Positions 30,201 to 33,200 of a DNA stretch of 64,000 bases are shown here, piece by piece. The stretch is from assembly GCF_002854065.1 (NCBI RefSeq), contig NZ_CP024147.1; one strand, given 5' to 3'. Position 1 is the first letter of the stretch; each line of letters starts with the position of its first letter. Source of the stretch: Escherichia coli (GTDB lineage: Bacteria > Pseudomonadota > Gammaproteobacteria > Enterobacterales > Enterobacteriaceae). The position numbers are program-made.

Positions 30201-33200
30201 CCGAAAAAACGGCGCAGGAAGCCGTCTCCCCGGATGAAGCCGCGCGTATTCAGGCTAATCCGCTGGTGAAGCAGGAACTGGAAATTAACCAGCAGTTAAG
30301 TCAGCGTCTGATTACCGCGACTGAAAACGGTAATCAGTTGATGCAGCAAAACATTAAAGTCAAAAACTGGCTGGAGCGGGCGCTGCAATCGGAACGCAAT
30401 ATTAAAGAGCAGATTGCCGTCCTGAAGGGCAGCCTGCTGTTGTCTCGTATCCTTTACCAGCAACAACAAACGCTGCCCTCGGCGGATGAACTGGAAAACA
30501 TGACCAACCGCATCGCGGATTTGCGTCTCGAACAGTTTGAAGTTAACCAGCAGCGTGATGCACTCTTCCAGAGCGATGCGTTCGTCAACAAACTGGAAGA
30601 AGGTCACACCAACGAAGTCAACAGCGAAGTTCACGATGCGTTATTGCAAGTGGTTGATATGCGTCGCGAATTGCTGGATCAACTCAACAAACAGTTGGGT
30701 AACCAGCTGATGATGGCCATTAACCTGCAAATCAACCAGCAGCAGTTAATGAGTGTGTCGAAAAACCTGAAATCCATCCTGACTCAGCAAATCTTTTGGG
30801 TGAACAGTAACCGTCCAATGGACTGGGACTGGATCAAAGCGTTCCCGCAAAGCCTGAAAGATGAATTTAAGTCGATGAAAATTACGGTGAACTGGGAAAA
30901 AGCCTGGCCCGCCGTTTTTATCGCTTTCCTCGCTGGTTTGCCGCTGCTGTTGATTGCCGGGCTGATCCACTGGCGTCTGGGGTGGCTGAAAGCGTATCAA
31001 CAAAAACTGGCTTCCGCTGTGGGTTCCCTGCGTAACGACAGCCAGCTCAACACACCAAAAGCGATCCTTATCGACCTGATCCGTGCACTGCCGGTGTGCC
31101 TGATTATTCTCGCGGTTGGCCTGATTCTGTTGACCATGCAGCTCAACATCAGCGAACTGCTATGGTCGTTCAGTAAAAAACTGGCGATTTTCTGGCTGGT
31201 GTTTGGCCTGTGCTGGAAGGTACTAGAGAAGAACGGCGTTGCCGTGCGTCACTTCGGCATGCCGGAACAGCAGACCAGCCACTGGCGTCGGCAAATTGTC
31301 CGCATCAGTCTCGCATTGCTGCCTATCCATTTCTGGTCTGTGGTAGCAGAACTTTCCCCGCTGCATCTGATGGATGATGTGCTGGGGCAGGCGATGATTT
31401 TCTTCAACCTGCTGCTGATTGCCTTCCTGGTATGGCCAATGTGCCGCGAAAGCTGGCGTGATAAAGAGTCGCACACCATGCGACTGGTCACCATTACCGT
31501 GCTGTCGATTATCCCGATTGCATTGATGGTGCTGACTGCCACGGGTTATTTCTACACCACGCTGCGCCTCTCCGGGCGTTGGATTGAAACCGTTTATCTG
31601 GTGATCATCTGGAACTTGCTCTACCAGACGGTATTGCGCGGCTTAAGCGTAGCGGCGCGGCGTATCGCCTGGCGTCGTGCGCTGGCGCGTCGGCAGAATC
31701 TGGTGAAAGAGGGCGCAGAAGGTGCCGAACCGCCGGAAGAACCCACCATTGCACTGGAACAGGTTAACCAGCAGACGCTGCGTATTACCATGTTGCTGAT
31801 GTTTGCGCTGTTCGGTGTCATGTTCTGGGCAATTTGGTCCGATTTGATCACCGTGTTCAGCTATCTCGACAGCATCACGCTCTGGCATTACAACGGCACT
31901 GAAGCTGGCGCTGCGGTGGTGAAAAACGTCACCATGGGCAGTCTGTTGTTTGCGATTATCGCCTCAATGGTGGCCTGGGCGTTGATTCGCAACCTGCCTG
32001 GTTTATTGGAAGTGCTGGTGCTCTCGCGACTGAATATGCGCCAGGGCGCGTCGTATGCCATTACTACCATCCTTAACTACATCATTATTGCCGTTGGTGC
32101 GATGACGGTGTTCGGATCGCTGGGCGTCTCTTGGGATAAACTCCAGTGGCTGGCCGCAGCATTATCCGTAGGTCTTGGTTTTGGTTTACAAGAAATTTTC
32201 GGTAACTTCGTCTCCGGTTTGATCATTCTATTCGAACGTCCGGTGCGTATTGGCGATACGGTAACCATTGGTAGCTTCTCGGGGACGGTAAGTAAGATCC
32301 GTATTCGTGCGACAACGATTACCGATTTCGATCGCAAAGAAGTGATCATCCCGAACAAAGCGTTTGTTACCGAGCGTCTGATCAACTGGTCGTTGACTGA
32401 CACTACTACGCGTCTGGTGATCCGTCTCGGCGTGGCCTATGGCTCCGATCTGGAAAAAGTGCGTAAAGTGTTACTGAAGGCGGCGACTGAGCACCCAAGG
32501 GTGATGCACGAACCAATGCCGGAAGTCTTCTTTACGGCGTTTGGTGCCAGCACGTTGGATCATGAGCTGCGTCTGTATGTGCGTGAACTGCGTGACCGTA
32601 GCCGTACTGTCGATGAGCTGAACCGTACTATCGATCAGCTGTGCCGTGAAAACGACATCAACATTGCCTTTAACCAGCTTGAAGTGCATCTGCACAACGA
32701 GAAGGGCGAGGTGACGGAAGTAAAACGCGACTACAAAGGCGACGACCCGACGCCAGCGGTAGGGTAAGGACAATAAAGGGCGACAGTGATGCCGCCCTTT
32801 ATTTTTTACTCGCTTTGTGAAGCCTCATCGCTCTGTAACTTCTTTTCATAATCACGCTTTACAATATCCAGCGCGCGCAGCACGGTACTGGCAGGGATCT
32901 GATTTTCCTCCAGCAGCACAATCAAATCGACAGCCAGTTTGACATCGTCAGGGGCATTTTCCAGTGACATACTCTCTCCATTGCTAGCGGGTTAAACGCG
33001 CTAACCTGTTTTCGATTTTTTCCAGCGCATGGCGACAGCGTGCCAGGCGCGCTTCATAGGCTTCCACTTCACGATGCAGCGTTTGCTGTTCCACGAGATC
33101 GGTCACCCGCGCCAGGCGGGCTCTGCGTTCGGCAACCATCTCACGTAGCCGCCGCTCAAAATCCTGATGCTGAATACGTTTACGCTGCCAGCGGGCAATT

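Follow-up and report, generated by a model that had tools for sequence, protein, structure and literature searches.

How two convergent genes end their transcripts within a few tens of nucleotides, and whether one of them had been overlooked, are the questions raised by positions 32775-32970 of a 64,000-nucleotide stretch of Escherichia coli DNA (assembly GCF_002854065.1, contig NZ_CP024147.1), the whole of which is referred to below as the window. A preliminary description had proposed that a minus-strand open reading frame (ORF) of 54 codons, missed by the ORF track, encodes the conserved small protein YbaM, that its stop codon lies inside the hairpin and T-run terminating mscK on the other strand, and that one palindrome therefore probably serves both genes. 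The account that we favour, with a probability of about 85%, is that this gene, now named rsmS, belongs to a priC-rsmS operon, encodes by homology a modulator of CsrA/RsmA, and is followed by a palindrome that would act as a bidirectional terminator.

Re-translation of the minus strand from 32970 to 32806 gave an intact frame of 54 codons followed by a TAA stop. No start codon lies between the preceding in-frame stop and the ATG at 32970, and no longer version is possible. The absence of this frame from the ORF track was explained by its length of 54 amino acids, below the default minimum of 60; it surfaced only at a minimum of 20 amino acids. Its product matched the whole of Pfam PF10689 (DUF2496; E=7.7e-24, 83.7 bits against a cut-off of 25, profile positions 1-43 of 43) and of the NCBIfam equivalog NF008266, 'pleiotropic regulatory protein RsmS' (93.3 bits against a cut-off of 76, positions 1-46 of 46), which together with the RefSeq coding sequence bears out the identification as YbaM. 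Specifically, the RefSeq rsmS gene of strain CUWW06, which is 100% identical here, maps exactly onto 32806-32970, and in O157:H7 RefSeq annotates rsmS at the equivalent coordinates with the same 54-residue protein except for S28R. A 601-nt query around rsmS matched 5,424 of 5,426 complete E. coli genomes, and among the matches listed the feature beneath the match was rsmS. It is thus virtually certain that this frame is the known, annotated gene rsmS (ybaM), and the locus is not new, as the gene is already annotated here in every E. coli genome with inspected annotation. Direct reading of the minus strand also revealed a Shine-Dalgarno-like sequence, GGAGAGAG, at 32972-32979, the GGAG of which ends 5 nt ahead of the rsmS ATG, within the 13-nt gap between priC and rsmS. 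The same 601-nt query reached at least 99% identity in only two of the 5,424 matching genomes, which marks the window as part of an uncommon E. coli lineage.

A database search returned 368 homologues of RsmS in Escherichia, Citrobacter, Salmonella, Klebsiella, Trabulsiella, and others across the Enterobacteriaceae; those named in their sources were labelled RsmS or DUF2496 protein, apart from one 'hypothetical protein'. In an alignment of 15 RsmS sequences all 25 invariant columns lay in residues 1-44; the tail beyond residue 45 or so varied. The window protein, with a conserved core from residue 1 to about 45 and the variable C-terminal tail QSDEASQSE, fits at 54 residues the family pattern of about 50-65 amino acids. 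Over codons 1-45, substitutions at codon positions 1/2/3 numbered 1/0/11 against E. albertii, 5/1/22 against Citrobacter, and 2/3/21 against Salmonella, and synonymous codon changes exceeded non-synonymous ones. This concentration at third positions indicates that the frame is under purifying selection. AlphaFold2 run on the family alignment predicted a two-helix hairpin (helices 8-22 and 27-53, mean predicted local distance difference test score 85.5) with a low-confidence tail. No PDB chain was matched by sequence search at E<=1, nor any PDB structure by a Foldseek search with this model at E<=10. That the frame is open by chance and is no gene, as its shortness and its place under common ORF-calling thresholds might suggest, is close to inconceivable and was rejected: the profile matches exceed curated cut-offs, the homologues and the third-position bias are as described above, the position after priC is conserved, a Shine-Dalgarno site is present, and mutant phenotypes with complementation have been published in Pectobacterium, Serratia, and E. 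coli.

Most of what is known of the function of this gene comes from other Enterobacterales. In Pectobacterium, rsmS (the ybaM homologue) was found as a suppressor of rsmB mutations; rsmS mutants bypass rsmB and make both the quorum-sensing signal and plant cell-wall-degrading enzymes in excess, while overexpression also has effects, which shows that dosage matters (Monson et al. 2019, PMC6418279). The same study found that priC insertions are polar on rsmS, which demonstrates a priC-rsmS operon, that rsmS lies invariably directly downstream of priC, and that a Shine-Dalgarno sequence precedes it. As cited there, an E. coli ybaM mutant has a competitive defect under envelope stress, complementation of which requires the priC promoter (Hobbs et al. 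2010), and ybaM mRNA is altered in E. coli csrA and csrD mutants. A contact between YbaM and CsrA appeared in a large-scale yeast two-hybrid screen that the authors of PMC6418279 call unvalidated. In Serratia, an rsmS mutation raises (de-represses) cas gene expression independently of rsmB (PMC8450108). This 2021 Serratia paper credits Monson et al. with a direct RsmS-RsmA interaction, a claim stronger than PMC6418279's own.

The window gene resembles RsmS of Pectobacterium atrosepticum (ECA1172) and of Serratia in having pfam10689 over residues 2-44, a position right after priC in one operon, and an upstream Shine-Dalgarno sequence. It differs in that function was assayed in those organisms only, and in that priC and rsmS are 37 bp apart there, compared with 13 nt in the window. 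As a working mechanism, we take RsmS to be a small helical protein that supports CsrA/RsmA activity as its partner, with direct binding as a putative step. A CsrA-related function in E. coli is inferred from the literature on Pectobacterium and Serratia, together with the indirect E. coli links. Neither PMC6418279 nor PMC8450108 treats the downstream context or terminator of rsmS, to which we now turn.

The stop codons of mscK (32765-32767, plus strand) and rsmS (32808-32806, minus strand) are separated by a spacer of 38 nt (32768-32805), which is nearly filled by a palindrome at 32772-32803. Its sequence reads AATAAAGGGCG-ACAGTGATGC-CGCCCTTTATT, with stem arms AAUAAAGGGCG...CGCCCUUUAUU. The proposed location of the rsmS stop codon inside the hairpin and T-run was correct in part: the codon overlaps the final two T of the T-run (32802-32807), but it lies 2 nt outside the stem. 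On the mscK transcript the GC core is followed by a T-rich tract, TTTATTTTTT (32798-32807, plus strand), the final two T of which lie opposite the first two bases of the rsmS stop codon on the other strand. On the rsmS transcript it is followed by an interrupted U-rich tract, UUUAUUGUCCUU (32766-32777, minus strand), which runs with its final two U into the complement of the mscK stop codon. Judging from the size of the ribosome footprint, a ribosome stopping at the end of either gene would sit over the A/U-rich outer arm and extend approximately to the edge of the GC core, and neither mRNA would have an appreciable 3' untranslated region past the hairpin.

The plus-strand RNA of 32772-32803 was predicted to fold into 11 bp, an A/C mismatch, and 2 further bp, with a free energy of -16.9 kcal/mol. 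In the minus-strand RNA a G.U pair takes the place of the mismatch, which results in a stem of 14 bp (that pair included) closed by a 4-nt loop, with a free energy of -21.0 kcal/mol. Compared with shuffled sequences, the z-scores were -4.4 (plus) and -5.9 (minus), and none of 200 shuffles folded as well. A scan of 32400-33700 against Rfam at E<=1 yielded no known RNA family, only sub-threshold matches that were all driven by the terminator hairpin; among these, MicX (20.9 bits against a gathering score of 75) and antisense_SR1 (18.2 against 45) were rejected as under threshold.

Both strands of the whole window were scanned with a discriminant combining hairpin energy (ViennaRNA) and U-tail, in replacement of a simple promoter and terminator scan. 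Among 415 candidate sites, 16 of them above zero, the palindrome ranked 7th on the plus strand (d=13.8) and 8th on the minus strand (d=10.4), values of which the ranks within the window are the robust part, the absolute cut-off at zero being approximate. The stem expected of an intrinsic terminator is present in both directions, as a stable GC-rich stem-loop at a distance of 4 nt from the mscK stop and 2 nt from that of rsmS. On the mscK strand the U-tract is equally clear, the plus strand past the GC core reading UUUAUUUUUUAC with a tail score of 4.48. On the rsmS strand, UUUAUUGUCCUU has a tail score of 3.50, and the approximate discriminant is positive though the tract is interrupted.

These asymmetries bear on the possibility that the palindrome terminates mscK only, and that priC-rsmS reads through into antisense mscK, with Rho, a collision of RNA polymerases, or trimming back to the hairpin by 3' exonucleases then defining the end of its transcript. 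The lower minus-strand tail score (3.50 versus 4.48) speaks for such read-through, as do the weak U-tracts on both strands of the related palindromes of other species described below and the behaviour of the natural bidirectional terminator ynaJ-uspE, which terminates poorly in single-direction assays and acts via polymerase collisions (Wang et al., bioRxiv 10.1101/2022.10.23.513370). Against it, the minus-strand hairpin is the more stable one (-21.0 versus -16.9 kcal/mol), its discriminant is positive and 8th of 415, and the minus-strand site was flagged independently by the simple terminator scan. We therefore regard termination of mscK alone as the less likely outcome, albeit one that deserves serious consideration, and genuine two-way termination by the palindrome, as the sequence would predict for each strand, as probable.

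Elements of the latter kind are known. Bidirectional terminators between convergent genes have been described in E. coli as a prevalent class (Ju et al. 2019, summarised in bioRxiv 10.1101/2022.10.23.513370). The present element resembles members of that class, such as ynaJ-uspE, in being a single hairpin element between convergent genes with unequal U-rich sequence on both strands. It differs in that the class is said not to be intrinsic-terminator-like, whereas the element described here is nearer to a canonical intrinsic terminator on the mscK strand, and in that it is predicted here from its sequence.

Comparison with other genomes suggested that the hairpin is old. Within E. coli the palindrome was invariant across the five window-type strains sampled and was thus uninformative for covariation. 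We then examined six loci from outside Escherichia, namely those of Citrobacter sp., C. koseri, C. rodentium, Klebsiella pneumoniae, Trabulsiella, and Salmonella. In all six, a gene of the rpn family (PF04754 Transposase_31 plus HTH_Rpn_C) lies downstream of rsmS on the same strand and converges on mscK (L005:1438-2361, L013:1942-2841, L014:1938-2885, L015:1937-2848, L016:1936-2907, and L006:1438-2358 in our extracted loci). This gene is interrupted by an internal stop in the Salmonella record and is absent from the rsmS loci of E. coli and E. albertii. The spacer between the rpn stop and the mscK stop measures 35-37 nt and contains a palindrome in five of the six loci (all but Salmonella). 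These five palindromes have the same GGGCG/CGCCC core as that of the window, with different outer arms and loops. The Citrobacter, Klebsiella, and Trabulsiella elements are therefore alike in their homologous GGGCG...CGCCC core and in the short spacer that follows mscK, and differ in that the converging gene is of the rpn family (PF04754), itself downstream of rsmS, rather than rsmS, and in that the U-tracts are weaker there. The strongest T-run among the compared palindromes is that of the window allele on the mscK strand.

In a six-sequence alignment 87.9% of cells were paired, as opposed to 43-62% when the partners were slid by 1-3 columns. Changes on both sides were seen in 6 of the 11 stem pairs, and the covariation score was reached by none of 500 shuffles. 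This indicates, in a supportive though not conclusive way, that the hairpin beside the mscK stop would be an old, selected structure common to whichever gene abuts it.

Taken together, one palindrome for both rsmS and mscK, as the preliminary description had thought probable, is the best-supported reading for the window allele. A shared bidirectional terminator is computationally well supported because the hairpin takes up most of the 38-nt spacer, because it ranks high on both strands, and because a homologous palindrome with compensatory stem changes is conserved in six species; terminators of this kind are also a known class. Under this reading, rsmS would be the second gene of the priC-rsmS operon, with a Shine-Dalgarno site of its own for translation, and its product would be a 54-residue two-helix DUF2496 protein that modulates CsrA/RsmA independently of the CsrB/RsmB RNA, by homology with RsmS of Pectobacterium and Serratia. 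The gene would converge directly on mscK across a 38-nt spacer formed by a single GC-cored palindrome between A/T-rich arms, such that transcription of either strand would yield a hairpin followed by a U-rich tract and lead to intrinsic termination of both mRNAs. The hairpin probably doubles as a 3'-end stabiliser for both.

Several points weigh against this reading. On the one hand, some concern how the evidence was obtained. The simple scan, whose rule of 3-8 nt for the loop the plus-strand fold violates, missed the plus-strand site and flagged only that of the minus strand, and the discriminant used in its place has the form of d'Aubenton-Carafa et al. 1990, with modern energy parameters. 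The covariation alignment was anchored on the palindrome and reduced to the core and four adjacent positions on either side, and a DNA palindrome covaries identically for both strands, which makes the test blind to which transcript uses the hairpin. A literature search for transcript 3'-end mapping in a window-type strain found none, and K-12, the source of most such mapping, has a different mscK-ybaM spacer. On the other hand, some concern the element and the protein themselves. The minus-strand U-tract is interrupted, with 8 U in 12 positions, and the U-tracts of the palindromes outside Escherichia are poor on both strands. Because of the latter, the conserved hairpin may be mainly a pause or collision site or an RNA-stability element instead of a classical intrinsic terminator; these weak tracts would also fit the class of bidirectional terminators able to act via pausing and polymerase collision. 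Direct binding of RsmS to CsrA is putative, though PMC8450108 cites it as shown, and a literature search for direct YbaM-CsrA biochemistry turned up only the 2019 and 2021 papers. Finally, direct convergence of rsmS and mscK on a shared palindrome is confined to roughly one in four E. coli genomes, which limits how general the reading can be.

This last point reflects the existence of two forms of the rsmS 3' end in the species. A query of the window-type spacer was covered by at least 80% in 1,345 of the 5,426 complete genomes (~25%), and a query of the K-12-type spacer in 3,881 (~72%). The forms were compared using window positions 32768-32850, L003:899-1150 for K-12, and L004:1330-1600 for E. 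albertii. In K-12, the locus has the order mscK / ybaM / priC / ybaN / apt, and ybaM (b0466, NP_414999.1, 'DUF2496 domain-containing protein YbaM') encodes a protein whose residues 1-45 are identical to those of the window RsmS, with one synonymous difference over those codons. The K-12 protein has 53 residues ending in TRDDEAEK, whereas the window protein ends in QSDEASQSE, and the breakpoint between the two forms falls within the last rsmS codons. The distance to the mscK stop is 211 nt in K-12, where the spacer carries two repetitive extragenic palindromic (REP) units in inverted orientation between two similar small hairpins, compared with 38 nt and a single shared palindrome in the window. 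The E. albertii locus is of the K-12 type.

Since REP units occupy the same spacer in K-12-type strains, and an IS200C element has inserted into it in one strain, the palindrome might itself be a member or remnant of a mobile repeat, similar to REP units or bacterial interspersed mosaic elements (BIMEs), or alternatively a protein-binding site. This is very unlikely. The palindrome occurs once in the window, a 106-nt query holding it found a median of one place per E. coli genome and at most two, it has no similarity to the K-12 REP units, and in the five further Enterobacteriaceae examined a palindrome occupies the corresponding position behind the mscK stop. The REP/BIME reading was rejected on copy number, as the palindrome is single-copy and the REP-bearing middle of the K-12 query has a median of 19 places per genome. 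In the strain with the insertion, ETEC1701 (L010:1860-2570), the IS200C element, with its tnpA annotated, lies in the T-run, in the interval between the palindrome and the rsmS stop at about window position 32806, and its end brings its own hairpin and T-run next to rsmS.

The window tail ASQSE resembles the tails of Citrobacter and Salmonella (ASQSD, ASQTD, DSQTE). Because of this likeness, the window-type tail is probably the older form; the order of events suggested by these sequences is that rpn was lost in Escherichia and that the REP-type spacer is a later remodelling. A 2026 preprint reports that REP positions differ among strains and that the presence of REPs between convergent genes is correlated with increased expression of the two, and for this reason the dimorphism at the 3' end could affect RsmS dosage. 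By extension, as RsmS is dose-dependent in Pectobacterium, the two forms might set different levels or activities of RsmS and tune the Csr system in a lineage-specific manner (e.g., in O157:H7 versus K-12), an idea that we consider improbable. In any case, K-12 is unrepresentative at the rsmS-mscK spacer, which has been repeatedly remodelled by rpn loss, REP gain, and IS200 insertion, and studies of RsmS dosage or of mscK 3' ends need to know the allele of their strain. As a discovery, the locus carries little weight, given that the rsmS family already has published genetics; the arrangement of rsmS beside a shared hairpin is ordinary, the sharing of hairpins by convergent genes being common. 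It does illustrate that a threshold of 60 amino acids hides real, functional small proteins.

The neighbouring genes are those expected, the order mscK / rsmS / priC / ybaN being the usual one in E. coli. The convergent neighbour mscK (29408-32767, plus strand, 1119 amino acids) was identified by its ORF, by the NF008438 equivalog (1833 bits), and by RefSeq. It is without one codon (GAT, Asp) at 32707/32708 relative to O157:H7 and K-12, giving 1119 instead of 1120 amino acids. The upstream gene of the operon described in PMC6418279, priC (32984-33511, minus strand, 175 amino acids), was identified by its ORF, PF07445, and the NF007500 equivalog. Its stop codon (32986-32984) is on the same strand as the rsmS ATG, and rsmS was found directly after priC in every locus in which the upstream gene was called. 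The gene ybaN follows at 33581-33958 on the plus strand.

A terminator-like hairpin and T-run (AGCGGGTTAAACGCGCTAACCTGTT TTCGATTTTT) was also seen on the plus strand at 32986-33020, antisense to priC and overlapping its stop codon and 3' end. This site is probably due to chance, as the regional count of such sites is near the shuffled expectation. Elsewhere in the window, a further possible bidirectional terminator was located at 16363-16389, where both strands scored above zero (d=22.7 on the minus strand and 4.2 on the plus strand). Two other palindromes, likewise possible bidirectional terminators, gave candidate hairpins on both strands with only the plus strand above zero, namely those at 5917-5932 (d=0.4 plus, -10.5 minus) and 815-835 (d=2.8 plus, -12.0 minus).

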